In this document: piece by piece, positions 13,103-32,916 of the stretch
Layout of the letters: each line of letters begins with the position of its first letter
How positions within the stretch are numbered: the stretch's first letter is position 1
The notes under the pieces: generated by a model
Databases searched by the model: none
Told to the model about the DNA's origin: nothing
The model's input: only the letters and a program-made list of their open reading frames with translations
Translations under genes and position numbers: made by a program
Assembly: GCA_038213805.1 (NCBI GenBank)
Contig: JBBQSO010000055.1
Span: 1 to 35,744, forward strand
Reading direction: 5' to 3'
DNA from: Planctomycetota bacterium
GTDB lineage: Bacteria > Planctomycetota > UBA11346
DNA: 35,744 bases

Positions 13103-13206
13103 GGCGCACCTCATGGGCAGTGGCGTACGCAGGCGCATGGGCCTGTCGAGCGCGGCTGCGCCTCCAGCGGACGCGCTGCACCATCCGCCTGACCGAGTGG
13201 GGCGGA

Positions 13207-14124: not shown

Positions 14125-14344
14125 GCCTGTCCGCTCTCCCGCGTGGGCAGCCTGGACATCGGCCCGGCGGGGTCAAACGGGTCCCGCACGGCACCCCCTG
14201 GCACACGGCCGCTCAGCTGCGGTTTACAGACGCCTCTCCGCGGTGTAAGGTCAGGACATGGAATCCCGCGCCCACACACCGCTTCCGTCGCCCCGCGCGG
14301 GCCGCCAGTGCTCTCCACAGGCAGACACAGGGCCTTGGCCCGCC

Positions 14345-14373
14345 TTGACTGTGGAGATCCCTCCGTTTATGAA
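14345..14373 (+). promoter_or_regulatory. Possible sigma70-type promoter for the roadblock/mglA operon
   Basis: TTGACT-N17-TATGAA in the divergent intergenic region; the -10 match is imperfect. Confidence 0.3.
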
Positions 14374-14478
14374 ACTCCGCAGATAAGCCCCTATCCCGAC
14401 CGGACCTATCCCCAAGCGCCCATCGCCGATGAGCGTTACTGACAGGTCACCCGCCCCAGCCACGAGAGGACTTCCCGG

Positions 14479-15333
14479 GTGGAATCCGAACTCGAACGCC
14501 TGCGCAAGAAGGTGGAGAACTTCCCGTCCGCCTCGGCCTACAACCGGCTGGCCGAACTGGTCAGGTCGAGCGGCGACGACGTCGGCGCCGAGCAGGCGTG
14601 CCGGCGTTGCATCAAGGAGTTCCCGCGCAACGGCCAGGCCTACGTGATCCTCGCCGAGATCGAACTCGGCGCCGGGCGCAAGGCCGAGGCGGTCAAGCAC
14701 CTGCTGAGCGCGACCGAGCGCGACAGCCGCAGCTACACCGCGCACAACCTGCTCGCCGAGCATTACATCGCCGAGCGGCAGATCGACCAGGCGCTCGCCC
14801 ATCTGCGCCACATCCTCACCTTCAAGGCCAACGATCCGGCCATTCTGCAGCGCATCGAGCAGCTGCGCCCCGCGGGCGCTGACAGCGCCGTGGCGCGTCC
14901 GGCGGTCGCACCGCGGCCCCCCACCGCCGCGCCCGGCATCACCGCGCCCGCCCGCACCGCCCAGCCCGGTACCGCCAGCCACGCCGCCAGCCGGCTTACC
15001 GGCTTGGCCGCGCTGTGTGCGGAGAGCGGCGTGCGCGGCGCGCTGGTCGCCGATGCGCGCGGCAGGGTGGTGACCAGCGCCGGCCTTGCCCCCGATGTCG
15101 AGGACCTGCTCGCCGGGCTCGCCGCCGAGATCACCGGCGCCGCGGTGCGCGCGCTGGAAGCCGCCGGCACGCCGCGCCTCGGTGTGTGGTCGCTGACCGC
15201 GGCCCAGGGCCAGATCTTCGCCTTCCGCCGCGAGGGTGACTACACCGTGGTCGCGCTTACCGAGTCGGGGGTGCGGCCGGCGATGCTCGAACTGCGTGCC
15301 CGCCAGGCGCTCCACGACCTGGGAGCGGCCTGA
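14479..15333 (+). CDS. TPR + roadblock/LC7 domain protein
   Basis: GTG start after GAGGA RBS. N-terminal ~130 aa of TPR-like repeats, Pro/Ala linker, then roadblock pattern GVRGALVADARG.V......LLAGLAA. Confidence 0.85.
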   Translation: MESELERLRKKVENFPSASAYNRLAELVRSSGDDVGAEQACRRCIKEFPRNGQAYVILAEIELGAGRKAEAVKHLLSATERDSRSYTAHNLLAEHYIAERQIDQALAHLRHILTFKANDPAILQRIEQLRPAGADSAVARPAVAPRPPTAAPGITAPARTAQPGTASHAASRLTGLAALCAESGVRGALVADARGRVVTSAGLAPDVEDLLAGLAAEITGAAVRALEAAGTPRLGVWSLTAAQGQIFAFRREGDYTVVALTESGVRPAMLELRARQALHDLGAA

Positions 15334-15335
15334 CC

Positions 15336-15683
15336 ATGCAGGAGATCCTCGTCCAACTCAACCGCGTGCGCGGCGTCGGCGGCTCGCTGCTGGTCAGCGG
15401 CGAAGGCCTGACCGTGGCCTCGGCACTGCGCGAGGGCCTCGACGAGACCCAGCTCGCCGCCACCGTGGGCGAGGTCATCGATCACGGCCAGCGGCTCTGC
15501 CAGCACCTCGCCCTGGGCGCTCCCCGCCAACTCCAGGCCGGCAGCGAACAGGGCAGCCTGCTGCTCGCCGCCGCCGGCAACGGCTGGCTGGTGGTGATCG
15601 TCGATCCCGCCGCCAACCTCGCCCTGCTCCAGCTCGAGACCAAACCCTTCATCGAACGCCTCGCCCAACGCCTCTCACTCTGA
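15336..15683 (+). CDS. Roadblock/LC7 (MglB/MglC-like) protein
   Basis: 115 aa; IL..LNRVRGVGGSLLVSGEGL.VAS...LAA, then beta-rich GSLLLAAAG..WLVVIV..ANLALL, the roadblock pattern. Confidence 0.85.
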   Translation: MQEILVQLNRVRGVGGSLLVSGEGLTVASALREGLDETQLAATVGEVIDHGQRLCQHLALGAPRQLQAGSEQGSLLLAAAGNGWLVVIVDPAANLALLQLETKPFIERLAQRLSL

Positions 15684-15726
15684 CGACAGAACGCCGGCCG
15701 CGCCCCTGCGGCCCATGGGAACAGAC

Positions 15727-17094
15727 ATGGTCCAGATTAATTTCGGTCAACGTGAAGTCAGCTGCAAAGTGGTGTTCTACGGCCCCGGCATGTCGGGAAA
15801 GACCACCAATCTCGAGATCATCCACAAGAAGGCCCCGAAAGAGGCGGTTGGCGAGATGGTGTCGATCGCGACGGAGACCGACCGCACGCTGTACTTCGAC
15901 TTCCTGCCGCTCGACCTCGGCCAGGTCGCCGGCATGCGCACCAAGTTCCAGCTCTACACCGTGCCCGGCCAGATCTACTACAACGCCACGCGCAAGCTGG
16001 TGCTGCAGGGCGTCGACGGGGTGATCTTCGTCGCCGACTCGTCGCCCGACAAGATGCCGGAGAACCTCGAGTCGCTGCAGAACCTGCGCGACAACCTCGC
16101 CGAGATGAACCTGACCATCGACGACGTGCCGCTGGTCCTGCAATACAACAAGCGCGACCTGCCGGGGGCGATGAGCATCGCCGACCTCAACGCGCAGATG
16201 AATCCGATGAACGCCCCGGTCTTCGAGGGCGTGGCGCGCGAGGGCAAGGGCGTGTTCGCCACCCTCAAGGAGATCTCGCGCCTGGTCATCGAGAAGCTCA
16301 ACAAGGACCACGCGCCGGCCGCCAACCGCCGCCGCACCAACTCGTCGCTGCCCGGCACCACCTCCACGCAGGTGCGGCCCAGCGCCCCGACGCCGGCCCC
16401 GGTCCAGCAGCCGTCGACTTCGGCCACCCCGATGGGCGGTTCGCGCACGCCGCACCGGCCCGCAGCGGTCGCGGCGCCGCCGGTACTGCCGCCGAGCCCG
16501 CGCAGCACCTTCCCGGTGCCGGCCGCACAGCCGACGTCGGCGCACGGGGCCCTCGCGCAGACGCCTGCGCCGGCACCCAGCGACAATCCGCGCGACAAGC
16601 ACCTGGCCAAGGCCAAGCCGCCGGCGCTCGACAACCTGCGGCAGGCGCCCGCGCGCCTGGACCTCGGCACCACCGATCCCAATCTCAAGCGCTACCAGCA
16701 GACTCAGCAGCCGGGTGGCGGTGGTGCTCTGCGCTCCATGCTGACCGTGCTGCTCGGGCTGATCATCGTGGTCATCGTGCTCGCCATCCTGGTGGTCTTC
16801 GTCCCGGCCGTGCGCGCACTGCTGCCGCAGGACATCCAGCGCATGTTCCTGCAGCCCGCGGCTGCCACGCCGGCCCCGGCCGCCGCGGTGGCGGCGCCGG
16901 TCGCGCCGACCGCACCGGCAGTCGCGCCGGCTGGGCCCAAGCCCGCTGCGAGCGCGCCCACTGCGGTCGCGCCGACCACGGCACCCGCCACGCCGGCCGA
17001 GACACCCGCTGCGACCGTCATCCCCGTGCCGGCGGCGCCGCCCGCGCCCGCCCTGCCCGCGACCCCGCCTGCCGAGGGCGCCAATGGTAAGTGA
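15727..17094 (+). CDS. mglA: MglA-family small GTPase with Pro/Ala-rich extension and transmembrane helix
   Basis: KVVFYGPGMSGKTTN (G1), TETDRTLYFDF (switch I with catalytic Arg), LYTVPGQ (switch II), NKRD (G4). TM-like LTVLLGLIIVVIVLAILVVFV at 16741-16803. Confidence 0.95.
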   Translation: MVQINFGQREVSCKVVFYGPGMSGKTTNLEIIHKKAPKEAVGEMVSIATETDRTLYFDFLPLDLGQVAGMRTKFQLYTVPGQIYYNATRKLVLQGVDGVIFVADSSPDKMPENLESLQNLRDNLAEMNLTIDDVPLVLQYNKRDLPGAMSIADLNAQMNPMNAPVFEGVAREGKGVFATLKEISRLVIEKLNKDHAPAANRRRTNSSLPGTTSTQVRPSAPTPAPVQQPSTSATPMGGSRTPHRPAAVAAPPVLPPSPRSTFPVPAAQPTSAHGALAQTPAPAPSDNPRDKHLAKAKPPALDNLRQAPARLDLGTTDPNLKRYQQTQQPGGGGALRSMLTVLLGLIIVVIVLAILVVFVPAVRALLPQDIQRMFLQPAAATPAPAAAVAAPVAPTAPAVAPAGPKPAASAPTAVAPTTAPATPAETPAATVIPVPAAPPAPALPATPPAEGANGK

Positions 17095-17599
17095 AAACGA
17101 CGCCCTCCGCCTGCGCCGCCTGGTCTTCTATGCCCAGGACATCGACCGCATCAACGCCGCGCTGCTGACCTTCATCAAGAAGGCCAACGCGCAGTGCGCG
17201 CTGGTCATCGACAAGGAGGGCCACATGGTCTCGCGCCAGGGCTTCTTCAAGCAGGATTCGTCCGCGCTGGCGGCGCTGGTCTCGGGCAGCTTCGCCAGCA
17301 CGCGCGAGGTCGCGCGCCTGCTCGGCGAGCCCGAGTTCCGCACCATGTTCCACCAGGGACCGGGGCAGAGCATCCACATCACCCTGATCGGCGAGCGCAC
17401 CCTGCAGGTCGCGGTGTTCCCCGCCCAGGTCAAGGCCGGCATGGCCCAGGTGCTGTGCAAGGAACTCGCCGTGCAGCTCGACGCGGTGATGGCCGACGCC
17501 GGGCGGCGCAAGCCGGATGACGCCAAGCAGGAGACGCTGGGCCAGAACTTCTCTGCCGAGATGAAGACCCAGCTCGATTCCCTGTTCGGCAACCTCTAA
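17084..17599 (+). CDS. mglB: MglB roadblock GAP
   Basis: LVFY..DI.RIN.......ANA...VIDKEG, ALAALVSGSFAST..VARLLGEPEF..MFHQG..SIHI closely follows Myxococcus/Thermus MglB, with C-terminal LDSLF helix. Overlaps the mglA stop. Confidence 0.92.
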   Translation: MVSENDALRLRRLVFYAQDIDRINAALLTFIKKANAQCALVIDKEGHMVSRQGFFKQDSSALAALVSGSFASTREVARLLGEPEFRTMFHQGPGQSIHITLIGERTLQVAVFPAQVKAGMAQVLCKELAVQLDAVMADAGRRKPDDAKQETLGQNFSAEMKTQLDSLFGNL

Positions 17600-17611
17600 A
17601 CCGGCTACGAC

Positions 17612-20600
17612 ATGGGTTTCCAAGGACAGTTGAGCTCGGTCAACCTGGCCGACATCTTCCAGACCCTGCACATGAACCGCCAGACCGGCACGCTCATCGT
17701 GACCGGTGCCGGGCAGAGCGTCGTGCACATCTATTTCGACAACGGCCAGGTCGCGGTGTGCGCGGCGGCGCCGATCGAGGGTTACGCCTTCCTGATCCAC
17801 TCGCTGCTGCGCAAGGGCATGCTCCAGGCCGACCAGGCCCAGGACCTGCAGCACCGCGTACAGACCACCGGCCAGCCGGTGCGCGACCTGCTGCTGGCCA
17901 GTGGCGCGGTCGGCGAGGGCGAGGTCGACGAGATCGCCGCGTGGTGCATCGAGGAGGTGGTCTGCCCGATCTTCGAGTGGAGCGAGGGTGACTTCACCTT
18001 CGCCGACGGCGCACCCACGGCCGCGCTGCAGTCGGTCGACGTGGTGTCGATGGGGCGCAGCGGGCTGCAGACCACCCAGCTGCTGCTCGAGGCGACGCGG
18101 CGCAAGGACGAGTGGAAGCGGATCCGCGAGGTCATCACCGACGCCAACGCGCTCTACGTGGTCGACAACGAGGGCCGCGCCAACCTGCGCAACATCCAGA
18201 CCGACGCCGAGATCCTCAAGGTGCTGCGTTATCTCGACGGACGCCACCGCCTGGATGACATCGCCTCGGCGGTCGGGGTGACGCGCTTCGACACCTTCGC
18301 CATCGCCGCGCAGCTGGTGCTGGCCGGGGTGGCGCGGCCGCGCACACCGCAGGAGCTGGTCGCCGACGCCGACGCGCTGCGCCGCACCGGCGAACTCGAC
18401 ACCGCGCGCGCGCTGCTCGAAAGCGTGCTGCCGGCGGCCAACGTCCCCGAAGTCATCCGCCCGCTCGCCGAGATCAACGCCGAGCTCAAGAACGCGCCGC
18501 GCGCGGTCGAACTCTACCTCGAGCTCATCCAGCTCGCCCAGGACCAGGGCAATCTCGAGCAGGCGCGCGCCGACCTCGACACCGTGCTGAGCCTGTCGCC
18601 CGACGACCCCGACCTGCAGTTCGACCGCGCCAAGGTGCTCAGCGAGCTCGGTCACATGGAGGACGCCGCAGCGGCCTACGTCGCCGCCGCCCAGGCCTTC
18701 CTCGCCACGCGCGACACCGAACGCGCCATCGACGCCTGCCACCGCGCCAAGAACCTGGTGCCCAAGAACCCCGATCCGCACCGCTATCTGGCCAAGGCCT
18801 ACCTGATGACCGGGCAGACCGAGAACGCGCTGGTCGAGTACCGCGCGCTGTGGCACGCCCTGCTCACCAGCCTGCGCCCGCGCCGCGCCATCGAGGTGCT
18901 GCGCGAAACTCTCGAGGCCGACTGCCGCTTCGCCAACGTCAAGGAGCAGGTCCTCAACCAGGCGCTGAATTCCGAGGCGGTCAAGACCAGCAAGGCCACC
19001 CGCGTGCTGGTCTACGTGGTGATGGGCCTGGCCCTGGCCGGGGCCGCGGTGCTGGGGGTCGAATACTGGACGCGGATCCTGCGCGTGCGCGGCGCCGGTG
19101 AGGCGGTCGCCACCTTCGAGGCGACCAAGGGCGAGCGCCAGCGCGCCGGCCAGCACCTTGACCTGCAGCGCGAGATCGACGCCCTGCGCAAGCAGTACGG
19201 CGAGATCCCGCAGGTCGCCGAGCACCTCAGCCAGATCTCGGCCGAGATCGCCAAGGACTTCGAGAGCCTCGCCCAGCGCCAGCTCGAGACCGCCGCGACC
19301 CTGGCCGATGGCGGACAGTTCGCGAAGGCCATCGCCACCGTCACCGACCTCAAGCAGCGCTACCCGGGCACGCCCGCCGCGGCCGGGGCCGACGCGCGCA
19401 TCGAGGCACTGCGCCAACAGCAGATCGGCACCCAGGTGGTGGCGGTCGCCGACGAGGCGCGCCGGCGCTGGGACGCCGACGACTGGGACGGCGCGACCGC
19501 CCAGCTTGCCGAGGTGCTCAAGACCGGCGAGCTGCCCACCGACGTCCGCACCAAGCTGGGCGCCACCGCCGCCGATTGGAACGCGGCGCTGCACAGTGCG
19601 CAGCGCCTGGGCGAACGTGCCGCGCGTCTGGAACAGGGCGGCCACCTGCGCGAGGCGATCGCGGGCTACCGCCGCGCCGGCGCCGCCGAGGGCGAGCCGT
19701 TCGCCGCCCAGGCGCGCGAGAAACAGGGCGTGCTCGAGCTGCGCCTGGCCCACGACCTTGATCACGCCGCCCAGCAGGCCTTCGCGCGCGGCGACGACAA
19801 GACCGCCTTCGCCCAGCTCGACGAGCTCGCTGCTCTGGCGAAGAGCGCGGGCGGCAGGGTCAGCGAATTCACCGCGACCGTGAAGATCCCCTTCACCGTC
19901 ACTGTCGACAGCCCGCTGACCCGGCTGGTGGTCAAGCGCCCCGGGATGGCGGACCAGACCTTCCGCGCACCTGCCGGCAGCACCACCACGTGGAAGCAGC
20001 GCATCGACTACCTGCCGGCCGAGACCCTGACCGTCGAGGCGCGCCGCGCTGGCTTCAGCCCGGTGACCCTGGCGATCGCCGCGGCCGCGCGCAAGGCGCA
20101 GGCGACGGTAGCCCTCAGCCGCGGCAGCCTGTGGCAGAGCGAACTCGGCGCGGTGGCGACCACCATGCCGGTGGCGGTCGGCAAATACATCCTGCTCGCC
20201 ACCGACAAGGCCACCATCGAGGTCGTCGACACCGGTCTGGGCGCGAGCAAGCCGGTGCTCTTCCCGCAGACCGTCGACGAGTTCAAGAGCGCGCCGCTGG
20301 TCTTCCAGAACCTCGCCTACAGCGTTCTGGACAACCGCCTGTCCTGCGTCGACGTGGCGACGCGCACCATCCTCTGGACGTTTCCGCCGCAGGCGCAGCC
20401 CAGCGCGCTGCACCTGACCGGCGGGCTGTGGGTGCAGGAGCACGAGCTCATCCCCGGCGTGGTCCTGGCCTTCGCCGGCGGGGCGGGCGGCGAGCTGCTG
20501 ACGTGGGCCTATGCCAACGGCAAATTCACGCCGTACCCGAAGATCGCCCTGGGCGGCGACCTCACCGGCGCGCTGTTCGGCGACCAGTTCGAGCCCAACC

Positions 20601-21199
20601 ACACCATCCTCTATGCGCCGACCGGCACGCAGATCACCGCCTACGACACCACCGCGGCCACCGAGCACACCGCCGCCACCCTGCTGTCGACCTTCCACAC
20701 CCGTGGCGAGGTGGTCGGACGCATGGTGCGCGCATCCGTCGCCGGCCGGCCGGCGCTGCTGGCGATCGACGCCTCGGGCCTGCTGGTCGCCATCGACGGC
20801 AACCCGTCCGCGCCGGAGGGCAAGCGCGCACTCGGCTCGTGGGCGGTCGAAGGCAGCGGCACCGGCGCCCCGGTCGTCGCCGGTGAAACCGCTTACGTCG
20901 CGGTCACCGAAGGCAAACTGACCGCGGTCGACCTCACCCGGCCCGGGCAGCTGCGCTGGCGCTTCCCGGCGACCGGCGCGATCGGTGGACTGAGCGGGGC
21001 CCCGGCGCTCGGCCAGCGCGGCCTCTACCTGGCCGACGCCAACGGCACCCTGCACTGCATCGACGCGCAGAGCGGCGCCGAGCGCTGGCACGCCGATCTG
21101 GGCTCGCCGGCCACCGCCGGCATCGTCGCCGCCGAGGGCAAGGTCTACATCCCCCTGCGCAACGGCACCCTGACCTGCTTCGAGGAGGGCGCGGAATAG
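17612..21199 (+). CDS. DUF4388 (PATAN-like)-TPR-TM-TPR-PQQ/BamB-like beta-propeller protein
   Basis: FQGQLSSVNLADIFQTL...TGTL..IYFDNG..IFEWSEGDFTF (DUF4388); multiple TPRs; hydrophobic helix at ~19004-19060; C-terminal propeller repeats (LSCVDVAT...LW, LTAVD...LRWRF, LHCIDAQSGAERW). Confidence 0.88.
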   Translation: MGFQGQLSSVNLADIFQTLHMNRQTGTLIVTGAGQSVVHIYFDNGQVAVCAAAPIEGYAFLIHSLLRKGMLQADQAQDLQHRVQTTGQPVRDLLLASGAVGEGEVDEIAAWCIEEVVCPIFEWSEGDFTFADGAPTAALQSVDVVSMGRSGLQTTQLLLEATRRKDEWKRIREVITDANALYVVDNEGRANLRNIQTDAEILKVLRYLDGRHRLDDIASAVGVTRFDTFAIAAQLVLAGVARPRTPQELVADADALRRTGELDTARALLESVLPAANVPEVIRPLAEINAELKNAPRAVELYLELIQLAQDQGNLEQARADLDTVLSLSPDDPDLQFDRAKVLSELGHMEDAAAAYVAAAQAFLATRDTERAIDACHRAKNLVPKNPDPHRYLAKAYLMTGQTENALVEYRALWHALLTSLRPRRAIEVLRETLEADCRFANVKEQVLNQALNSEAVKTSKATRVLVYVVMGLALAGAAVLGVEYWTRILRVRGAGEAVATFEATKGERQRAGQHLDLQREIDALRKQYGEIPQVAEHLSQISAEIAKDFESLAQRQLETAATLADGGQFAKAIATVTDLKQRYPGTPAAAGADARIEALRQQQIGTQVVAVADEARRRWDADDWDGATAQLAEVLKTGELPTDVRTKLGATAADWNAALHSAQRLGERAARLEQGGHLREAIAGYRRAGAAEGEPFAAQAREKQGVLELRLAHDLDHAAQQAFARGDDKTAFAQLDELAALAKSAGGRVSEFTATVKIPFTVTVDSPLTRLVVKRPGMADQTFRAPAGSTTTWKQRIDYLPAETLTVEARRAGFSPVTLAIAAAARKAQATVALSRGSLWQSELGAVATTMPVAVGKYILLATDKATIEVVDTGLGASKPVLFPQTVDEFKSAPLVFQNLAYSVLDNRLSCVDVATRTILWTFPPQAQPSALHLTGGLWVQEHELIPGVVLAFAGGAGGELLTWAYANGKFTPYPKIALGGDLTGALFGDQFEPNHTILYAPTGTQITAYDTTAATEHTAATLLSTFHTRGEVVGRMVRASVAGRPALLAIDASGLLVAIDGNPSAPEGKRALGSWAVEGSGTGAPVVAGETAYVAVTEGKLTAVDLTRPGQLRWRFPATGAIGGLSGAPALGQRGLYLADANGTLHCIDAQSGAERWHADLGSPATAGIVAAEGKVYIPLRNGTLTCFEEGAE

Positions 21200-21500
21200 G
21201 CGCGAGCGGAGTGGTCGTGTGCGGTCCGCGGACCGGGCGCGAGCGTCGATCAACAGCGGTCGCAGGCAGCCCGGGCCGGCCGGTGGAAAGACGCGGCACC
21301 AGCTGGCGTCAGCACCAGTGCGAAACGGTCGCTGACCTACCGTTCCATGTCCGGTTCCAGGCGGTTGTGGCGTCACTCGCCGAAATCATCCAGTTTGGCC
21401 GCCTTGGCCGCCCGTCCATGTCGGATATTCCGCCTTCCAGCCTGCAACACTCTCTTGAAGCTAGGGTACCCTCTCCATGGAATCATCACCGGGACCAGCC

Positions 21501-22124
21501 ATGCGCCGCGGCTTCACCCTCATCGAATTGCTGGTGGTCATCACCGTCATCGCGATCCTCGCGGGGCTGCTCATCCCGCTGATCTCGATCGCGCTGCAGA
21601 AGGCGCGCGAGGCCAAGTGCCAGGCGAAGATCGCCAACATCAGCGCGGCAATCAACAAGTACCGGGACGCGAACGGGGTGGTGCCGGACCGCATCAACGC
21701 CAACGCCTTCGCCGGCAGCACCAGCATTCAGGCCGCAGACCTGCCGGTGGTCGGTCAGGGGTACCAGGATATCTTCTCCTCCGGAGCCACGCCGAAGACC
21801 GTCGACCAGCTCAGCGAGAGCGAATGGGAGAGCATCGGCAAGAACATCGTCGCCCAGCTCGGCACCGTCGATCGCGACAATTTCAAGACGCTCGACGACT
21901 TCCGCGACCCGTTCGGCGCGGGCATCAAGTCCAAGGTCTTCCGCTATCGGCCGGCGCGCTTCTATTCGCTGCAGATCACCGGCAACGCCAGTACACCGCT
22001 TACGTATCCCGACTCGGATGACCCGCCCAACCCCGACACCTTCCAGCTGTGGTCGGTCGGCGCGAACGGTAAGGACGAGTACGGCAGCGCCGACGATCTG
22101 CCGAACTGGAAGAAGAAGAAGTAG
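21501..22124 (+). CDS. Prepilin-type protein, GspG-like (pseudo)pilin
   Basis: MRRG|FTLIELLVVI class III signal with E5; DPFG..FRY and FQLWSVGANG...DDLPNW GspG-like C-terminus. Confidence 0.92.
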   Translation: MRRGFTLIELLVVITVIAILAGLLIPLISIALQKAREAKCQAKIANISAAINKYRDANGVVPDRINANAFAGSTSIQAADLPVVGQGYQDIFSSGATPKTVDQLSESEWESIGKNIVAQLGTVDRDNFKTLDDFRDPFGAGIKSKVFRYRPARFYSLQITGNASTPLTYPDSDDPPNPDTFQLWSVGANGKDEYGSADDLPNWKKKK

Positions 22125-22263
22125 CATGACCGCGGCCCGGCGCAGCGGAGCGGGCGTCGGCATGGGCGGGAATCCCGGCACGTACGGGCCGCACGCGAGG
22201 GCCCCGCTCATGCAGCGGTGCGCTGCGACCCGCCCACCAGCGGCCACCCCCTGCCAGCACCCG

Positions 22264-23709
22264 ATGAACGCCACGCACGCAGCCTGCGCCAACCGCGCAC
22301 GAAGCACTCCGCGCTCCGCACTCCGCACTGCCACCCGCATCCCGCGCGCCGCCTTCACTCTGATCGAGATGATGGTGGTGATCTGCATCATCGCGATCAT
22401 CGCGGCGATCACCCTCGGTTCGATCTTCGGGACGCGCACCGTCAACCGCCTGCTTGCGACCGAGCAGCTGATCGGCGACCTGGTGCGTCAGGCGCGCCAC
22501 ACCGCGCGTTCCACCGGCGCGCCGGTGGTGCTGCGCATCACCCGCGACGCACCCGACGCGGCGGGCAACAGCAGTGGCGCGACCATCGCCGGCGTCAGCC
22601 GCATTCCGCTGTGGACGGAGCCCTTCGAGGGCCCGACGGTCGGCAGCCCCAACGCCATCCCCCTGCCTTCCGCTCCGCATCTGGGCGTCACGGGCTATGG
22701 CTGGTGGACCGGGGGCACCGCTGCCAGCGGCGTGGCGGCCGCCACGGGCCCGGCGGGCCCGCCGCCCTTCGCCGCCCTGGACCGTAATCAGGAGATCACG
22801 CGCGGGAACAGCGCGCGGCGCCTGAGCGACGGCTTCTATTTAGCTTGCACGGTCAACCCGAAACAGGCCGCACCGAACGCCACGCCCATACCGCTGCTGC
22901 TGGTCGGCGATTCGGCCGACATCGCGACCTCGTTATGCGGACTGATCCTGGTGCCGGACACGCGCGCGATCCAAAAGGTCAGCGGCGCGACCGCCAACCT
23001 CGCCAGCTACGAGATTGTCGGCTGGGTGCGGCCGCAGGGCGCGCTGGCGCCCGTCGAGGTCTCGTCGCTGGACAGCGCGGACATCCCCACCGGGGTGCTG
23101 CGCGACGAGCCGCTGCTGCACCCGTCGGTGTCCGGCGAGACCCACCCCAACGACATCGCTGGACCGCTTGCCGGCGGCCGCTGGGAAGAACTCGGCCTGC
23201 TCTACGACGGCGAGCGCCTGGTGCTGTACCGCAACGGCCGCCGCGTCGGCGAGAAGCTGCTGCCCACCGGTAGCGCCAGCCGCCTGCCCACGGGCGGCGC
23301 GCAGATCCACATCGGCGAGGCGGGGACGCAGACCGCCGACGCGACCTGCTTCGACGACTGCCGTTTGTACCGTTTGGCCACCGACCAGCTCGGCCGGCTG
23401 CCCGGACAGGTGGTGCCGAACGACGACTACCAGATCGTCGCGCACCCCGACGGCCGCGTCGAGGTCAACGTCGCCGCGGCAGCGGCCACGGCCGCGGGTG
23501 TGGGCGCGGGCGCCGGTGGCACCACGCTGCCCAACGCCGTCGCCAACGCCAACGCCAGCACCACCATCGCCGTCACCATCGCCATGACCAACCGCGTCCA
23601 GCACGCCGACATCACCATCACCGTCGATGGCCGGGTGAGCAGTGCGCTGCAGCTGGACAGCAAGGGCACGGCGGCGGCGCCGACGGTCGCCATCACCGGC
23701 GTACCGTGA
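22264..23709 (+). CDS. Prepilin-type minor pilin (GspH/FimT-like N-terminus) with LamG-like domain
   Basis: RAA|FTLIEMMVVI; L.RQARHTA.STG.PV.L GspH/FimT-like helix; WEELGLLYDGERLVLYRNG...IHIG...FDDCRLY LamG-like pattern. Start could be 22126, 22210 or 22264. Confidence 0.87.
   Translation: MNATHAACANRARSTPRSALRTATRIPRAAFTLIEMMVVICIIAIIAAITLGSIFGTRTVNRLLATEQLIGDLVRQARHTARSTGAPVVLRITRDAPDAAGNSSGATIAGVSRIPLWTEPFEGPTVGSPNAIPLPSAPHLGVTGYGWWTGGTAASGVAAATGPAGPPPFAALDRNQEITRGNSARRLSDGFYLACTVNPKQAAPNATPIPLLLVGDSADIATSLCGLILVPDTRAIQKVSGATANLASYEIVGWVRPQGALAPVEVSSLDSADIPTGVLRDEPLLHPSVSGETHPNDIAGPLAGGRWEELGLLYDGERLVLYRNGRRVGEKLLPTGSASRLPTGGAQIHIGEAGTQTADATCFDDCRLYRLATDQLGRLPGQVVPNDDYQIVAHPDGRVEVNVAAAAATAAGVGAGAGGTTLPNAVANANASTTIAVTIAMTNRVQHADITITVDGRVSSALQLDSKGTAAAPTVAITGVP
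22304..22331 (+). repeat. GCACTCC-type heptamer x4 inside the prepilin leader
   Basis: gcactcc gcgctcc gcactcc gcactgc read directly. Confidence 0.7.
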
Positions 23710-23735
23710 GGCCGCAAGCGAACGAGGCCCGACTC

Positions 23736-26700
23736 ATGCGTAACCGCGCCCGACGTCCATCCCGCAGCTGCGTGCTCCACCGGCGCGTGCAGCCGGCGCG
23801 CGCCGGCATCGCCCTGATCATGGCCCTGGTGATCCTGGTGGCGTTGATCATCCTCGGTCTGCCCTTCCTGTTCTCGCAGTCGTCCAGCCTGACCGGCACG
23901 CGCACCTTCGCGCACAGCCAGCAGGCCTATGTCGGGCGTACCGCCGCCGAGAATCTCGGCGTCGCATCCGCCACCGCCGCGGTCGCGCAGCATTTCCAGC
24001 CCACCGGCGCCGCCGCCGGCACCGCCCCCGGCGCCGACCCGCTCGAGGAATGGACCAGCCTGAGCGACAACCTCGACCCGGCGGTGCACGCCAACGTGCC
24101 CACCGGCTTCGCCACGCTGCTGCTCGACAATCGCGTCGGCCTGGACCCCAAGCAGCTCAACCTGACCCCCGCCGCGCAGCGCCGCTACAACGCGGTGGCG
24201 GAGAACGCCGCGTTGATCGGCGTGACCCTCGAGGACGAGTCGGGCAAGCTCGACCCCAACTACCTGTCGGTGGCGGCGTGGGACGCGCTGCTGCGCAAGG
24301 TCGGCATCAGCGACTGGGATGACAACGCGACGATCAACAGCAAGTGCTACTACAACAACACCACGGCCAAGTACGAGCAGTACTCGGACGCCGACACCTA
24401 CGGTGAGCTCGCCCTGGCGCTCAGCGAGGTGCGCCTGCTGCCGGCGCTCAAGCACCGTCCGATCGAGCGCCTTGAGCAGCTGCTGCTCGCCGACACCCAC
24501 CACTGGGCGCAACAGGGCGGCAGCTTCAGTTATCCGAGCAGCTCGGCGCCCACCGTGCGTTTCGGCCTGCGCCGGATGCTCACCCGCGCGGAACTCGAGC
24601 TGCTGCGGCCCTACCTGTCGCTGGCCAATCTCGGCCAGGGGCGCTCCGGCCTGATCGATCTCGGGACGGTGGTCAAGCTCGACGACAACATCGGCATCGA
24701 CCACGCCTTGTTCGTCGACGGCAATTTCGAGACCCTGCTCGGTTTCGGCACCTGGATCACCGCCGACCAGCTCGATCCCGCCTCGGGACAGGATCGCCAG
24801 GGCGTGGTCGAAGGCTACTTCGGCAACCTGAACGTCCGCACTGAACCGCTGGGGTCGCCCAACCCGCCGCTCGCCCAGCAGGGCGTCGGCCTCGCCATCC
24901 AGGCGCCTCCGATGGTCAACATCCACGCCGCCAGCGAGGCCGTGCGCGACGCGCTCGGCTACGTTTCCAAGCCCACCACCAGACCGCTGCGCACGGTCTC
25001 GCAGCTCATCACGCTCGGCCTGATGCCGGTCGGCAACACGCCGATGAACGTCCAGCTTACCGTCGCCTTCGACCTGCAGAACCCGCTGGCGCTGCGCTTC
25101 GAGGGCAATCCGCAAGAACAGCTGCGCCCGATCGAGCACCCGCCGCTGGCGATCGCCTCATCGGGCGTGGTGACCATCGAGTCCGCCGCCACCATCACCG
25201 ATCCACAGGGCCGCCAGGACGCCCAGGCCAAGCGCCGCATCGTCGTCCAGGCGGTGCCGCAGGAAACCGCGCTGGAGCAGCGCTGGCTGACCCAGGGCAT
25301 GTTCTCGACGCTGCTCGCGCAGCGCTCGGGCAGCAACCTCGAATCGTGGCCGAACCCGTTCCGCCGGCTCAAGCGCAGCAGCGACCCGCTGACCCTGCCG
25401 AACGATCCGGACCTGGGTGCGGGCGGCAGCGCCGTGGCCGGCACCGGGCTCAAGCCGATTACCGGGCCGAGCTATGCGACCGGCTACATCCACCGCGGCG
25501 ACCTGAACCCCGCCAAGCGCGTGCCCAGCCACGTCACCATCGACTGGCGCGCGCCCTTCGGCGCCGATCTGCCGATCGACACTGCCACCGACGGCGTCGC
25601 CAACGAGACCCTGCAGGGCCTGGTGCCGGTCTCGCCGTCCACCGCCTACGCGGGCCAGGACATGCGCCCCGACGGTCTGCATCTGAGCACCGGTTCGCCG
25701 CTCGCGTATGGTCTGGCCGCCGACGCCAACCAGGGCGCGGCGCACGGCCTTTTCCGGCGCTCGCATCTCAGATTGGGCACCCAGGTGTGGGAACTGGGCA
25801 ACCGCCAGATCAGCTTCTGGATCAAGCCGGAGAGCGACTGGACCGGGATCGTGCCGCTGCTTGAGATGCGCATGCCGGCCGGCCAAGCCGCCGGCGAGAT
25901 CACCCCGGGCGGCGCGCCGGGCGCCGGCAGCAACGAGCTGCAGAACTATTTCGGGCTGTTCTACGACCGCACCCAGCAGCTGCTGGCCCTGGTCATCGCA
26001 CCGCCGGCGATCGAGCACACCGGTGACTACGGTCCGCTGATCCCCAAGGATGACACCGACCTCACTTTCGATTTCGATGAGCGCTCGCTGGGCAGCGACG
26101 CGCCGGGCGCGACCTTTCCGCTCGCAGCGCGTCAGGTGCCGGACAGCGATCCGATGGCCAAGACCTCGGCCAAGCTCGCCAGCATCTCGACGCTGTTCCG
26201 CCCCAACCGCGTCATCCACATCTACCGCGTGCGCGACGCCAGCGCCGGCAAACCGTTCTTCCGCCAGAACCAGTGGTACAACATCCAGCTCGCCCTGGCC
26301 AACGACCGCCCGGGCGGCGCGGCGATCATCGTCGACGGATTGGTCGGACGCGATGCGGCCAAGGGCCCGGCCGCGACCTGCGTGCTCGACAAGACCGGCG
26401 ACCACCTGACTCTGCCCGGCCTGCCGATCACGGCAGAGATCGTGAAGGTCGACGCCACCACCGCCTTCGGCAATGGGCTGAAGGTCGCGGCGGTCACGGT
26501 CAAGGCGGTGACGCTCAAGACTTCTGGCGCCGACGTCGTGCTGCACGCCGCCGACCTCTTCCCGGTGCACGGGCAGGTTAAGATCGACGACGAATACTTC
26601 ACCTACGACAAGGTCACTGGCGACACGTTCTCCACGCTGGTGCGTGCGCAGCGTCAGAACACCAACACCACCGCCGGCACCCTGCAGGGCCGCTGGCCGG

Positions 26701-29018
26701 TGACCCAACACCACGCGGTGGGCACCCTGGTGACCCCGTCGGGCTACCGGCTGCGTCTGCCTGGCGGGACCTTCTTCGTGGGCGGTTGCGCGCTGGCCGA
26801 TCCCCTGGGGGCCGGCGACATGATCGATCCCAACTGGGCGATCTGGGCGCAGGCCGATCCCACCAAGGCGCCGATCATCCCCGACCCGACCGACCTGACC
26901 GGCAACCGCTATATCGTGTTCCAGGGCGACATTCCCCACGACATCCCGATCAAGGGCGGCCTGGGCGTGATCACGCAATTTCCGCAGAGCGGCATCGTGC
27001 GTCTGAACGGCCACGTCTTCTCGTACGCGTCGCGCAGTGCGACCGCGCTGCAAGGCGTCGCTGACCTCGCCGGCTTCACCTTCGCCGGCCCGGGTGCACC
27101 GCCGATGGGCGACACCGGCCAGTTCACCATCAACAAGACCCAGCTGAACTCGCTGCGCATCGTGCTGCTGACCACGTCGTTGACAGGCGATCCGACGGCG
27201 CCGAACGCCTACAGCCAGAATGGCGGGGGCGCGCAGCTGGCCCAGGTGGTCGATGCCGCGACCGGCCGTGTGGAATGGGTGCGCTATGACCTGTTGGCGA
27301 GCAATGGCGGCGTAGGCCACCTCTACGTCAACGACGGTTGGAACTATCCCTCCAACCGCGGCCAGCAGCGCACCTACCACCCGGGGCGGCTGTCGCCCGG
27401 GTACAGCAGCCTCACCCCCTTCGCCGCGGGCAGCCAGCTCATCGCGGTGCAGAGCGATATGCCGAATTCCGGCCACTGCATCGCCACCGGCGACGTGGTG
27501 ACGATGATCACCAAGGACACGCTCGGCACGGTCGCGCCGCTGCAGATGGTGGTGCGGTACGCGGCCATGGACGGCTACGACGCCGTGGCCGACTCGCGCA
27601 ACGGCAGCTATGACACCAAGAACGAATACTTCGCCTTCATGGACAACCTGCCCATGGGTTTCCCCACCGCCGCCAACCGCTTCGAGCTGATCAGCTGGCC
27701 ATGCTGGAGCAGCATCGACCTGACCGGGCCGGGCAACGCGCAGATGAACACCGGCGACATGCCGCGCCATTACATGCCGCGCCTGGACGCCCTGGCGCAG
27801 GGCTACGCGCCCGGCGGCCCCGCCTCGCCGGCCGCCCGGGTCTTCGTCGCGGCCGCGGACAGCGCGCGCGGCGGCCTGACCACCATGGCCGACGCCACCA
27901 TCGACGCCCTGGTCGCGGGGCCGCTGCCCGCCAATCCCACCGCGGCCCAGACCAGCGCGCTGCTGGACAACAACCAGGGCTGGACCAACCAGGGCGGCAG
28001 CGCGCTGGTGACCGCCGACGGCAACGGCATCGGCGCCGCCGTCGGTGACCTCGGTGCCTACGTCCATTCCAGCGACCAGGTGTTCGCGACCCCCACCGGC
28101 CTGGCCCTGATCGGCGGTGAGGTCTTCGCCTGGGAACGCAGCCACCTGCCCAACCCGGATGCGCGCAGCGCCAAACTCATCGGCCGCGGGCTGCTCGGCT
28201 CGGAAAAGGTCACGCACGCAGGGCCAGAGCCGCTGCTGATCCTGCCCATCGGTCCGGTGGCGCAGATCGAGGGCACCCTGCCGGAACAGGACTTCTTCCA
28301 GCTCAGCGACCAGTTCTTCAACAGCAGCCCCTCCTCGCCGGTGCTGGACGCGCCGGTGGCGATGATCTGCGATCCGGGCGGCGACCCCACCAAGGTCGAA
28401 CTCGTCCAGTTCGTCGGCCCGCGGCAGCGCGGCAACGTCAATTCGTACGTCACCGCGCCGTGGCTGCGTGGCCTGTACAACACCGTCAAGCAGACCTGGG
28501 GCCCGAGCGGCGGCCAGAAGCCGATCGTCATCGGCTGGTGGCCACGCTACGCCAGCGCGCTGCCCGGTTCAGGGGCGACGGCGGAGCAGTTCCGTTCGCG
28601 CACCTACGCCTGGGCGGGCTTCCCATTCCGTCTCCACGATGCACGCTTCGACCGCGCCCTGCTCGCCGCCAAGAGCGCGGAAGTCGCCACCGTCAAGCTC
28701 CTCGACCCGGAGATCGGTGACGCCTTCCGCATCGAGGCGCGCGCGCTTGCCCGGGGCTTCGATTGGACGCCTGCCACCGTGATGACGCTCAACACCGCCT
28801 CGACCAGCGATCAGGACGTCAGCACCGCATTCGGCCCGGCCTTCACCAACCAGGCGGTGGACGGCGCGGAGCTGCGCCTGACCTGGCATTACCTCAAGGA
28901 CCCCTCGGGTCTGCTGCCCGACATCGCCGCCGCCGGCAACCGCGCGCCGGCGATCGGCCCGGTGCGCCTGCGCTGCCTGGCGCCCACCGAGATCCTGTCG
29001 GTGGAGGGCCAGCAGTGA
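23736..29018 (+). CDS. Giant GspK/PilX-like minor pilin, putative tip adhesin (~1760 aa)
   Basis: RAG|IALIMALVILV signal lacking E5 (a GspK/PilX trait), LEDESGKLDPN GspK-like motif, later ISFWIKP/WYNIQL LamG-like strands and a beta-rich Gly/Thr/Pro body. Start GTG 23706 or ATG 23736. Confidence 0.88.
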   Translation: MRNRARRPSRSCVLHRRVQPARAGIALIMALVILVALIILGLPFLFSQSSSLTGTRTFAHSQQAYVGRTAAENLGVASATAAVAQHFQPTGAAAGTAPGADPLEEWTSLSDNLDPAVHANVPTGFATLLLDNRVGLDPKQLNLTPAAQRRYNAVAENAALIGVTLEDESGKLDPNYLSVAAWDALLRKVGISDWDDNATINSKCYYNNTTAKYEQYSDADTYGELALALSEVRLLPALKHRPIERLEQLLLADTHHWAQQGGSFSYPSSSAPTVRFGLRRMLTRAELELLRPYLSLANLGQGRSGLIDLGTVVKLDDNIGIDHALFVDGNFETLLGFGTWITADQLDPASGQDRQGVVEGYFGNLNVRTEPLGSPNPPLAQQGVGLAIQAPPMVNIHAASEAVRDALGYVSKPTTRPLRTVSQLITLGLMPVGNTPMNVQLTVAFDLQNPLALRFEGNPQEQLRPIEHPPLAIASSGVVTIESAATITDPQGRQDAQAKRRIVVQAVPQETALEQRWLTQGMFSTLLAQRSGSNLESWPNPFRRLKRSSDPLTLPNDPDLGAGGSAVAGTGLKPITGPSYATGYIHRGDLNPAKRVPSHVTIDWRAPFGADLPIDTATDGVANETLQGLVPVSPSTAYAGQDMRPDGLHLSTGSPLAYGLAADANQGAAHGLFRRSHLRLGTQVWELGNRQISFWIKPESDWTGIVPLLEMRMPAGQAAGEITPGGAPGAGSNELQNYFGLFYDRTQQLLALVIAPPAIEHTGDYGPLIPKDDTDLTFDFDERSLGSDAPGATFPLAARQVPDSDPMAKTSAKLASISTLFRPNRVIHIYRVRDASAGKPFFRQNQWYNIQLALANDRPGGAAIIVDGLVGRDAAKGPAATCVLDKTGDHLTLPGLPITAEIVKVDATTAFGNGLKVAAVTVKAVTLKTSGADVVLHAADLFPVHGQVKIDDEYFTYDKVTGDTFSTLVRAQRQNTNTTAGTLQGRWPVTQHHAVGTLVTPSGYRLRLPGGTFFVGGCALADPLGAGDMIDPNWAIWAQADPTKAPIIPDPTDLTGNRYIVFQGDIPHDIPIKGGLGVITQFPQSGIVRLNGHVFSYASRSATALQGVADLAGFTFAGPGAPPMGDTGQFTINKTQLNSLRIVLLTTSLTGDPTAPNAYSQNGGGAQLAQVVDAATGRVEWVRYDLLASNGGVGHLYVNDGWNYPSNRGQQRTYHPGRLSPGYSSLTPFAAGSQLIAVQSDMPNSGHCIATGDVVTMITKDTLGTVAPLQMVVRYAAMDGYDAVADSRNGSYDTKNEYFAFMDNLPMGFPTAANRFELISWPCWSSIDLTGPGNAQMNTGDMPRHYMPRLDALAQGYAPGGPASPAARVFVAAADSARGGLTTMADATIDALVAGPLPANPTAAQTSALLDNNQGWTNQGGSALVTADGNGIGAAVGDLGAYVHSSDQVFATPTGLALIGGEVFAWERSHLPNPDARSAKLIGRGLLGSEKVTHAGPEPLLILPIGPVAQIEGTLPEQDFFQLSDQFFNSSPSSPVLDAPVAMICDPGGDPTKVELVQFVGPRQRGNVNSYVTAPWLRGLYNTVKQTWGPSGGQKPIVIGWWPRYASALPGSGATAEQFRSRTYAWAGFPFRLHDARFDRALLAAKSAEVATVKLLDPEIGDAFRIEARALARGFDWTPATVMTLNTASTSDQDVSTAFGPAFTNQAVDGAELRLTWHYLKDPSGLLPDIAAAGNRAPAIGPVRLRCLAPTEILSVEGQQ

Positions 29019-30142
29019 GCCGCCTGATGCATCACCACGGCGCTTCGCGCGCCGGCCTGACGCTGATCGAGATCCTGGTCTCGATCCTGATCCTGTCGGT
29101 GGTCTCGATCGCCATGATCGGCATCTTGATGGTCAGTTCGGAGCTGTTCCGGCGTGGCGAGTTCAGCCGCTCGGCGAACGATGAGGCGATCGCGGTGATG
29201 GGGGCGCTGGATGATGATGTGAAGCGCATCATCCCGGTGGTGGATGGGGGTTGGCTGTATGCCGGACTTTCGACCACTCCCAATGGCAACTGCATCCTGG
29301 GCATGGCCATCCCGAATCCCGATCCGTCGGGCATCACCAGCACCGGCACCAACGGGCGGCTGGTGGTGGCGTGGTTCGTGGATGCGCAGGACAATCTGGT
29401 GCGGGTGCAGCGCGAACTGACCACAGCGGGCACCCCGCCGGGGTTTACCGTCGAGGCTCAGCTGCTCAATGACGTCGACGCGGTCATCACCTCCGGCGCC
29501 ATCGGCACGAGCATGGCGACGAATGCCACGCCGGGGTCGAGTCCGACGCAGGCGCAGATCATCACCACAGGTTGCCTGCATTTCAGTCCCTGGCTGAGTC
29601 TGGACGATCCCAGCTACCCGAGCATGAAGCGCACTCACGACGCCAATGGCATCAACTGGGAGGATCCGTCATGCGACCCTCTCGAAAACGCGCCCTTCGC
29701 GGCAGCTCCGGGCGCTTCGGGGGGGTTCGCCACCAATCCCGGGATACCAAGTACCACTACCAGCAGCGGAATTCCGGCAATTCCGATGCCCGCAGCGATG
29801 CGCATCACCGTGGTGTTGACCGGCGGTGGGCGCTTCGCGCCCAAGGGTATCCTGACCGGACCCATCACCGGTGGCGGTGGCGGCGGCGGTGGCCAGGTTC
29901 CGATCTCTGGCGTCGCGGTGCTGCCCACCACGCCCGGATCGATGCTGCGCATCGATCCCGATCCCAGTGGCGGGACCGTCGCTAATGGCAGCGAGTGGAT
30001 CGAATACAGCAACTACAGCGGTGGCAAGGCCACCATCGTGCGCCGCGGTGCGCGGCGCACGAACCAGAGTGCGACCCACGCCAAGGGCGACCTGGTGCGC
30101 GTCGGCGTGACCTATAGCTTGGTACGCAGCCTGCCCCACTAA
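29015..30142 (+). CDS. Prepilin-type minor pilin (GspJ/PilW-like)
   Basis: RAG|LTLIEILVSILIL with E5, L.DDV.RI helix, W..D....LVR and AMRITVVL elements. GTG overlaps the upstream stop (GTGA); alternative ATG 29027. Confidence 0.88.
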   Translation: MSRLMHHHGASRAGLTLIEILVSILILSVVSIAMIGILMVSSELFRRGEFSRSANDEAIAVMGALDDDVKRIIPVVDGGWLYAGLSTTPNGNCILGMAIPNPDPSGITSTGTNGRLVVAWFVDAQDNLVRVQRELTTAGTPPGFTVEAQLLNDVDAVITSGAIGTSMATNATPGSSPTQAQIITTGCLHFSPWLSLDDPSYPSMKRTHDANGINWEDPSCDPLENAPFAAAPGASGGFATNPGIPSTTTSSGIPAIPMPAAMRITVVLTGGGRFAPKGILTGPITGGGGGGGGQVPISGVAVLPTTPGSMLRIDPDPSGGTVANGSEWIEYSNYSGGKATIVRRGARRTNQSATHAKGDLVRVGVTYSLVRSLPH

Positions 30143-32880: not shown

Positions 32881-32887
32881 GCCCAGC

Positions 32888-32916
32888 TGGCAATCCCGCC
32901 CCAAATAGGTTACACT
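32888..32916 (+). promoter_or_regulatory. Possible sigma70-type promoter of cheY
   Basis: TGGCAA-N17-TACACT, 38 bp upstream of the ATG. Confidence 0.35.

Follow-up and report, generated by a model that had tools for sequence, protein, structure and literature searches.

MglA is the textbook bacterial polarity GTPase, and models of its action assume a soluble protein that relocates between the cell poles. What, then, is the role of an MglA that carries a membrane helix of its own and is encoded a few kilobases upstream of a set of prepilin-type genes? The question is raised by nine co-oriented plus-strand genes, here named G1 to G9, at positions 14479-30142 of a 35,744-nucleotide stretch of DNA from a Planctomycetota bacterium (GTDB lineage UBA11346; contig JBBQSO010000055.1 of assembly GCA_038213805.1). 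This whole stretch is called the window below. An initial annotation, made from the sequence alone, described the genes as a trans-envelope GTPase polarity switch that positions or gates an adhesion or contact apparatus and is linked to a filament tip cassette. Translation together with Pfam and NCBIfam profile scans recovered all nine open reading frames (ORFs) at the positions and spacing it had given, and the identities proposed for the first five agree with profile and structure matches. We hold it highly probable that G1-G5 form a membrane-tethered MglA switch with the single-pass (bitopic) protein G5 as its partner. The fuller reading, in which this switch acts via G5 and probably governs a specialised type IV filament, has in our judgement about even chances of being correct. 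The nine genes and the spacer between the two blocks are as follows (TM, transmembrane; GAP, GTPase-activating protein).

G1, 14479..15333, plus strand: TPR at residues 1-125, a Pro/Ala linker and a C-terminal roadblock/LC7 domain at residues ~181-284
G2, 15336..15683, plus strand: a single roadblock/LC7 domain, 115 aa
G3, 15715..17094, plus strand: an N-terminal MglA G domain of about 200 residues, then a linker, the TM helix and a tail
G4, 17084..17599, plus strand: MglB, a roadblock GAP with a C-terminal extension
G5, 17612..21199, plus strand: 1195-aa bitopic DUF4388/PATAN-TPR-TM-propeller protein
Spacer between G5 and G6, 21200..21476, no strand: 277 bp
G6, 21477..22124, plus strand: prepilin-type protein (MRRG/FTLIELLVV), GspG-like in its N-terminal segment only; alternative start at 21501
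G7, 22126..23709, plus strand: pseudopilin-like protein of ~450 aa with the motif RAA/FTLIEMMVV and a C-terminal module of no assigned family
G8, 23706..29018, plus strand: giant protein of 1760-1770 aa with a pilin-like N-terminal hydrophobic helix that lacks Glu5
G9, 29015..30142, plus strand: 375-aa prepilin-type protein (RAG/LTLIEILVS) with a Gly-rich C-terminal part

Successive genes of the first block are separated by 2 bp and 31 bp, overlap by 11 bp (G3/G4) and are again separated by 12 bp; the gap before the pilin genes, given earlier as about 300 bp, measures 277 bp. The GTGA overlaps said to join the last three genes are present in the sequence at G7/G8 and G8/G9, and four-base overlaps between pilin genes are also found in orthologous loci.

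The first ~195 residues of G3 are assigned by sequence and structure matching to a bona fide MglA. The G domain aligns over residues 5-194 with Thermus MglA (3t12_A, E 1.1e-75) and matches that of Myxococcus xanthus (5ymx_A, E 2.3e-70), and the profile scan gives an Arf-type small GTPase. The marks of MglA, as set out in passages of two papers, are an intrinsic arginine finger (Arg53), Thr in place of Asp in the GTPase G3 motif, the catalytic Gln82 and NKxD (PMC4316618, PMC3000849). Residues R53, T78, V79, P80, G81, Q82, N141, K142 and D144 are invariant among 20 aligned sequences.

At 455-459 aa, however, G3 departs from the single-domain soluble MglA of ~195 aa. A Pro/Ala-rich linker of ~145 aa leads from the G domain to a hydrophobic 19-mer (residues 345-363, nt 16747-16803), which is preceded by a conserved juxtamembrane motif, DKHLAKAKPP...LG.TDP.L[KR]RYQ..GGG, and followed by a Pro/Ala-rich tail of ~96 aa, predicted to be periplasmic. 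Relatives were collected by a one-genome-per-species scan with a G5 alignment, which gave 77 loci: true G5 orthologues (L001-L041, the clade) and distant homologues of the N-terminal half of G5 (L042-L077). One TM helix is present in all 15 clade orthologues of G3, with tails of 47-143 residues after it, and in six of six more distant planctomycete loci MglA is tail-anchored, with 2-7 residues past the helix. Among the 120 best database matches (length range 252-804 aa) a TM helix follows the G domain in 112; the remaining eight are short and apparently truncated. More than 6000 long MglA-like proteins fall within the length range searched. On this comparison the anchor is conserved, and the membrane tether proposed in the initial annotation held up.

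Two peculiarities of G3 may be mentioned here. Its extreme C-terminus, EGANG[KQ] (window 17084-17094), is kept in many orthologues, unlike the rest of the tail; the motif coincides with the 11-bp overlap, and its conservation may therefore reflect the start region of mglB and not the protein. In one relative (L029:6474-8177) the position of G3 is taken by an ORF in which Rho_N and DUF4912 domains replace the MglA G domain and the juxtamembrane motif, the TM helix and a post-TM motif are retained. MglB, G5 and the pilin genes come after this ORF; G1 and G2 are missing from the locus. Two explanations are at hand: a rearrangement that broke within G3 in this genome, or an independent function of the anchor segment.

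The gene that overlaps mglA is assigned to mglB, and G4 is an MglB orthologue encoded next to its GTPase. Its matches include M. xanthus MglB (6izw_B, E 1.5e-19), Thermus MglB (1j3w_A, E 5.6e-11) and Robl_LC7 (47 bits); it scores 65.3 bits against the Thermus-type MglB equivalog of NCBIfam, under the cut-off of 200. G1 combines TPR_19 (35.8 bits) with Robl_LC7 (25.2 bits, cut-off 23) and has an orthologue in 15 clade loci, with blastp matches also in distant planctomycete loci. G2 matches Robl_LC7 with 38.2 bits, and among solved structures the chains closest to it belong to generic roadblock proteins (7yh1_D, E 1.7e-7; CvnB5 3leq, E 0.0015), not to MglB.

G5 starts with a DUF4388/PATAN domain (PF14332, residues 4-169) that scores 84.7 bits against a cut-off of 25, and it also matches PQQ_2 (57.9 bits). 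The AlphaFold model, built from a 59-row alignment, has a mean pLDDT of 88. Residues 1-455 are modelled with confidence as PATAN, helical/winged-helix and TPR parts, the cytoplasmic half. Residues 457-488, which include the hydrophobic segment 465-483 (nt 19004-19060), are of low confidence and no confident helix was built there. Beyond them the model continues with an all-helical region (491-755), a beta-sandwich (759-833) and an eight-bladed propeller (841-1191, nt 20132-21184). Foldseek places the propeller with BamB, YxaL and designed eight-bladed propellers (E 1e-11 to 5e-13, TMt 0.72-0.83). Among 113 homologues with 1000 aa or more, 99 retain the hydrophobic segment, and basic residues flank it on the N-terminal side, a pattern that fits a single-pass protein oriented N-in, C-out. 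Model and conservation together support a bitopic G5 with a cytoplasmic PATAN-TPR half and a periplasmic helical, beta-sandwich and propeller half. Of the trans-envelope character proposed earlier, it is the crossing of the inner membrane that these data bear out. There are 113 full-length orthologues with 38-92% identity, and all those with a source name are from uncultured Planctomycetota. When residues 1-460 of G5 were modelled in complex with the G domain of MglA, GTP and Mg, the score was 0.00; the prediction had no controls and no conclusion is drawn from it.

The switch part of the locus resembles the systems of Myxococcus and Thermus in its intrinsic Arg53, Thr78 and Gln82, in the adjacent mglB and in having extra roadblock and TPR proteins. 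It differs from them in that their MglA is soluble, whereas planctomycete G3 is an integral membrane protein and cannot shuttle through the cytoplasm between poles. The anchor thus argues against the cytoplasmic pole-to-pole relocation that defines the Myxococcus polarity switch, and no result points to the polarity, adhesion or tip functions named in the initial annotation. The Myxococcus system works with the roadblock paralogue MglC, RomR/RomX and SgmX; no RomR, RomX or SgmX homologue was identified, and the partner here is the bitopic PATAN-propeller protein. Control of type IV pili by MglA has been described for Myxococcus and Bdellovibrio (in parts of PMC4316618) and is also covered in sections of PMC11580455.

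The PATAN half of G5 has precedents as well. PATAN genes near mglA/mglB were reported by Makarova et al. (2006, as cited in a passage of PMC4316618), and in Synechocystis PATAN-REC regulators bind PilB1 and PilC (parts of bioRxiv 10.1101/2021.06.11.447907). G5 shares DUF4388/PATAN with the PatA-type cyanobacterial regulators and differs from them in having no receiver domain; it differs from PATAN proteins in the fusion of PATAN to TPR, a TM segment and a periplasmic region of ~700 residues that ends in the propeller. To our knowledge, the role of PATAN outside cyanobacteria is largely open. The closest functional analogue of the role suggested for G5 is GltJ of the M. xanthus Agl-Glt gliding machinery, which crosses the inner membrane once, binds MglA-GTP through its cytosolic domains and is linked to an envelope machine by its periplasmic domain (sections of PMC11135422). 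GltJ is unlike G5 in its domains (ZnR-GYF and TonB-C versus PATAN-TPR and propeller) and in the soluble state of its MglA, and the two show no homology. The G5 propeller has a fold similar to that of BamB (3prw, E 2.2e-11, TMt 0.72), but G5 falls below the BamB cut-off (TIGR03300, 47.3 against 285.2), and its propeller forms the C-terminus of a bitopic protein and not a lipoprotein.

G6, G7 and G9 have the N-terminal methylation motif of prepilins. N_methyl scores 33.3 bits in G6 and 23.2 bits in G7, both above the Pfam cut-off of 21.2, and 20.2 bits in G9 (E 4e-4), just below it; the NCBIfam model TIGR02532 also passes its threshold for G6 and G7. G6 further matches pilin N-termini in the PDB (E 2e-6), and N_methyl was detected in nine of ten G7 orthologues and five of seven G9 orthologues. 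Of the four genes called prepilin-type, the label is weakest for G8, whose N-terminus is hydrophobic, without Glu5 and with no N_methyl match. When G8 was cut into five pieces and compared with Pfam and NCBIfam, the only matches were weak, N-terminal ones to GspK and Verru_Chthon_A, and no Pfam family was found in G8 or in eight orthologues. Its relatives, 134 representatives among 1.84 billion proteins, the longer matches having 1600-2200 aa, form what appears from these searches to be a closed family. The model of residues 11-1100 (pLDDT 80) contains a helix of ~60 residues at model residues 23-83; Foldseek returned no PDB match with E <= 0.001, and the comparison with Streptococcus sanguinis PilC (7oa8) was not significant at E 0.11. 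In the ESM Atlas G8 falls into unnamed clusters only, one of which has Laminin_G_3 on 19% of its members. Type IV pilin-like proteins are processed by a prepilin peptidase and assembled by a PilB/GspE-PilC/GspF machine; no gene for these steps lies in the window or in the flanks of L001-L041.

How closely the two blocks belong together was scored by tblastn with the window proteins, taking MglB (G4) upstream and G6 downstream of G5. Of the 34 loci informative upstream, G4 is present in 23 and absent in 11 (seven uninformative); downstream, G6 is found in 20 of 28 informative loci, two of them partial at contig ends, and is absent in eight (13 uninformative). Both blocks are kept in 13 of the 23 loci informative on both sides (L002, 3, 4, 8, 17, 27, 29, 30, 32, 33, 34, 39 and 40). 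A quick maximum-likelihood tree of 35 G5 sequences, for which the careful search is unfinished, has the joined state in both deep branches and the separated states in derived sub-clades. The simplest reading is that the nine genes stood together in the ancestor; as read from these sequences, the mgl-pilin linkage is ancestral but breakable. By our own count on the tree the G4-G5 and G5-G6 junctions were each broken at least four times, and breakage at G5-G6 is about as frequent as at G4-G5, where the wider module described below supports a coupling. G5 remains with the pilin genes in four of the seven loci from which the mgl genes are gone.

The five-gene module extends beyond this clade. Blastp to G1-G5 found it in seven distant planctomycete loci (L042, 43, 44, 46, 47, 60 and 73) in the order TPR-roadblock, roadblock, anchored MglA, MglB and DUF4388-TPR-propeller; the domains were confirmed with Pfam in L044 and, for the G5-like gene, also in L046. 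A bitopic PATAN-TPR/propeller protein is always encoded with MglA/MglB in this part of the phylum. Outside Planctomycetota, the MglA encoded beside DUF4388 is short in Gemmatimonadota (196-202 aa) and long, without a TM helix, in Zixibacteria and Fibrobacterota, where it ends with a basic-hydrophobic LFGWxKKLG-like motif that could be an amphipathic membrane-targeting helix. The search for synteny in other phyla, suggested in the initial annotation, was fruitful in that two Zixibacteria independently place a related module directly before pilB-pilT-pilC. In these loci (L064:7662-19791 and L071:7653-20274) the genes lie on one strand with short gaps in the order ComEC, DUF4388, small ORF, TPR, ORF, roadblock, long MglA (463 and ~650 aa, respectively), MglB, PilB, PilT and PilC.

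Some further neighbourhoods of distant homologues may be recorded. In Gemmatimonadota (L057:7027-17823) a short MglA and MglB lie between two DUF4388-TPR genes, together with several TPR proteins and a 650-aa protein of two DnaA-like AAA domains; three loci (L067, L075 and L076) resemble it in gene sizes and blastp matches. A PilT homologue is encoded ~2.3 kb downstream of the G5-like gene in another locus (L054:14861-15895), and in a further one (L045:1564-3255) a PilB/GspE homologue is found ~6.7 kb upstream of the DUF4388 gene on the opposite strand.

From these elements the following scheme can be proposed. The canonical MglA G domain would be held by its ~145-residue disordered linker to a single inner-membrane helix, with MglB as the GTPase-activating partner that sets its GDP state; G1 and G2 would probably form a second roadblock dimer acting as scaffold, co-GAP or exchange factor. 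G5 would be an effector or receptor whose cytoplasmic PATAN-TPR half reads MglA-GTP and/or contacts the filament motor, and whose periplasmic half, made up of the helical region, the beta-sandwich and the BamB-like propeller, contacts a partner in that compartment. It could reach a type IV filament machine in either way, via PATAN on the motor or via the periplasmic half. G6-G9, translationally coupled, may supply a specialised type IV filament with its priming or tip subunits, and the anchored MglA-G5 pair would set where or when the filament is assembled. Because MglA is anchored, such a switch would more likely act as a local gate than as a pole-to-pole oscillator.

The best-surviving alternative is that the mgl/G5 module is a general envelope or cell-polarity device, or one for outside-in signalling, serving for instance budding, the division site or cell-wall organisation, and that the pilin cassette is a mere long-standing neighbour, neither block directly regulating the other. 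We regard this as a real possibility, held with less than even confidence. Several findings favour it and weigh against a role of the switch in a filament. The blocks are separated in ten of the 23 clade loci informative on both sides: three keep the mgl block only (L020, 21 and 28), four the pilins only (L011, 14, 22 and 35) and three neither (L009, 23 and 36), and in unlinked loci unrelated housekeeping genes are the neighbours of G5. The available DNA of the seven distant five-gene loci shows no prepilin motif, and in two of them (L044:7026-20984 and L073:6790-17780) the module is followed by an unknown protein of ~215-250 aa, an S41 (PDZ) peptidase and the dcw cluster, represented by MraZ and MraW in both and in L044 also by LysM, an FtsI-type penicillin-binding protein and a Mur ligase. 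The unlinking in relatives that had been named in advance as telling against the proposed mgl-pilin connection is therefore in part a fact; the joined, ancestral state in the clade is the part of the proposal that stood. The architecture of G5, propeller included, is unchanged with or without adjacent pilins, and because the propeller is kept regardless its partner need not be the cassette. Unrelated neighbours are about as conserved as the mgl-pilin linkage: the diacylglycerol (DAG)-kinase gene stands beside G1 in 13 of the 15 loci with G1, and UvrC is kept even in L039. Since regional collinearity is this deep, adjacency alone is weak functional evidence. The 277-bp spacer could hold a separate promoter. 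No pilB, pilC, pilT or secretin homologue was found in the window or in the flanks of L001-L041, no recognisable pilin globular domain was found in G8 by Pfam, NCBIfam or Foldseek, and a concanavalin A-like lectin module of the S. sanguinis PilC type, considered for G7, was dropped, its Laminin_G_3 match being sub-threshold (20.2-20.7 bits, cut-off 27.6) and absent from all ten orthologues.

A general device with the cassette as bystander is, on the other hand, harder to reconcile with an adjacency that is ancestral and spans G5 divergence down to 37% identity, with the four loci where G5 stays with the pilins after the loss of mgl, and with the Zixibacteria module abutting pilB-pilT-pilC and the PilT homologue close to the G5-like gene of L054. 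The known link of PATAN to the type IV pilus motor in cyanobacteria speaks in the same direction. The connection between the membrane-tethered switch and the pilin cassette is thus plausible, ancestral in the clade and echoed in Zixibacteria, and it is neither universal nor demonstrated.

It could also be argued that G6-G9 form a pseudopilus of the type II secretion system (T2SS) kind, a piston for polymer secretion or uptake, with G5 as a periplasmic assembly or scaffold factor and MglA tuning the activity. We find this improbable. Its appeal lies in the best matches of the cassette, all sub-threshold and N-terminal. G6 matches GspG with 49.7 bits (cut-off 88.85) over profile positions 1-61 only and has no T2SSG Pfam match, and a GspG-type C-terminal motif found no support; G7 matches GspH with 34.3 bits (cut-off 80) and G8 matches GspK with 15.9 bits (E 0.007, cut-off 130). 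G9 scores 20.8 bits with PilV (cut-off 52.2), 13 with GspI (cut-off 44.35) and 11.9 with GspJ (cut-off 64.85). G6, G7 and G9 share prepilin motifs with the minor pilins of T2SS and type IV pili, the order of GspG-, GspH-, GspK- and PilV/GspI/J-like N-termini resembles a T2SS minor-pseudopilin set, and a BamB-like propeller is a periplasmic scaffold fold. The similarity to pilin families is, however, confined to the N-terminal helices and stays under every curated cut-off of the NCBIfam T2SS models, sizes of 450-1770 aa are far above those of T2SS pseudopilins, and no GspD, GspE or GspF gene lies nearby; sequence cannot separate secretion from adhesion.

Two other groups of pilin-like proteins invite comparison. 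Modular pilins, such as S. sanguinis PilB and PilC, carry large C-terminal additions on the pilin helix, and the largest one named in the part of PMC8179133 that deals with them has 860 residues. G6-G9 fit this concept, with G8 (1770 aa) about twice as large as that protein; no PilY1-type protein or assembly gene is found adjacent to them. The other group is the Verru_Chthon cassette, for which there are NCBIfam models (TIGR02596 and TIGR02598-02600, protein A with a profile of 1296 positions). G7 scores 30.6 bits against protein D (TIGR02596, cut-off 70), G9 15.1 against protein C (cut-off 256.5) and G8 10.7 against protein A (cut-off 332.3; E 0.085, N-terminus only), and no match to protein B was returned among the profile scans of G6-G9. 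According to the model descriptions this cassette consists of one giant and several smaller prepilin-like proteins, a make-up that G6-G9 resemble. No paper on it was found in the literature searched.

That the nine genes are no system at all, only a chance run of co-oriented genes and spurious ORFs, is ruled out by their conserved order in other species and by the MglA/MglB structure matches, even though long spurious ORFs abound at a G+C content of ~70% and several start codons are uncertain. The nine-gene order goes beyond chance, since it recurs in further species-level genomes whose G5 is as little as 37% identical. Orthologues of all nine genes stand in this order in other species, family matches are strong and folds confident, and G+C at third codon positions (GC3) is 0.88-0.94 in the plus-strand frames that hold G1, G3, G4, G5, G6 and G8 (0.89 for G6). 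The doubtful starts concern G3, whose own database entry begins at 15727, the probable start; G7, where the pilin motif lies 74 codons past the first ATG of the longest ORF; and G8, for which a 96%-identical database protein (P0238) begins at the ATG at 23736. Three very long ORFs, at 13036-14442 (plus strand, 468 aa), 17018-21376 (minus strand, 1452 aa) and 25158-28217 (minus strand, 1019 aa), are rejected as spurious, being antisense to or overlapping real genes and failing the GC3 filter.

The most interesting element of the locus is, in our view, the conserved MglA with a membrane anchor, together with the bitopic PATAN-propeller protein as its partner. Much around it is already known from published work: the association of mgl with PATAN, the control of pili by MglA, the binding of PATAN to motor proteins, GltJ and the modular pilins. 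The arrangement itself, which the initial annotation did not recognise as described, indeed has no description in the literature searched (most subscription journals lay outside it), nor do an MglA with its own TM helix, the architecture of G5 and the G8 family. In the accessible text of PMC4316618 the word transmembrane occurs once, for CvnA, and "Planctomyc" is absent; the gene neighbourhoods in its supplementary table S2 may bear on the point. An integral-membrane MglA that is conserved and abundant implies another use of the switch, in lateral or fixed-site membrane signalling. The adjacent cassette, with G8 among the largest pilin-like proteins seen, and pilB-pilT-pilC in Zixibacteria supply concrete, testable partners and an entry point to the surface filaments of uncultured Planctomycetota, about which little is understood.

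More speculatively, and rather doubtfully for the present, the TM-anchored MglA, multi-roadblock platform and PATAN-propeller receptor of Planctomycetota may represent a widespread, undescribed class of fixed-site transmembrane switches, in which the MglA of Zixibacteria and Fibrobacterota would possibly be anchored through an amphipathic helix at the C-terminal end of a long disordered linker. If so, such a switch would couple periplasmic or surface information to a type IV filament with a giant, 1770-aa tip pseudopilin. It would also be a prokaryotic counterpart of anchored GTPase/roadblock platforms of the Rag-Ragulator type. In eukaryotes the Rag GTPases and Ragulator combine a membrane-held small GTPase with several roadblock proteins. 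The likeness is an analogy only, anchoring here being by the GTPase's own TM helix; roadblock domains are treated as GTPase platforms in sections of PMC3747258.

Between positions 13900 and 30400 a promoter scan found no promoter-like (sigma-70-like) sites. A terminator scan gave six terminator-like sites on the minus strand and none on the plus strand, and shuffled sequences had equally many; these scans are uninformative on operon structure. The spacers between G5 and G6 in orthologous loci measure roughly 60-250 bp, judged from called ORFs and motif coordinates, and in an alignment of six of them any conserved motif was limited to close relatives. Neither Rfam nor a tRNA scan gave a match in the window.

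The nine genes are flanked by housekeeping genes. Upstream of G1 lie the divergent DAG-kinase-family gene (13207-14124, minus strand), a HEAT-like ORF (12461-13282, minus strand), UvrC and MetH. The HEAT-like ORF also recurs between UvrC and the DAG-kinase gene in relatives, and the recurrence of the two may come from the deep collinearity of the region or from a link to the module not recognised so far. G9 is followed by TerC, SodA, an HTH-cupin regulator, a CheY-like gene and a CheA-like gene. Chemosensory input reaches the MglA polarity system of Myxococcus and the PATAN regulators of cyanobacteria, so the last two genes may be relevant to the mgl module. The CheY-like receiver (32748-33326) and the CheA-like kinase (33830-35734) are located 2.6-3.7 kb downstream of G9; the kinase has two Hpt domains and H-kinase_dim and extends past the end of the window.

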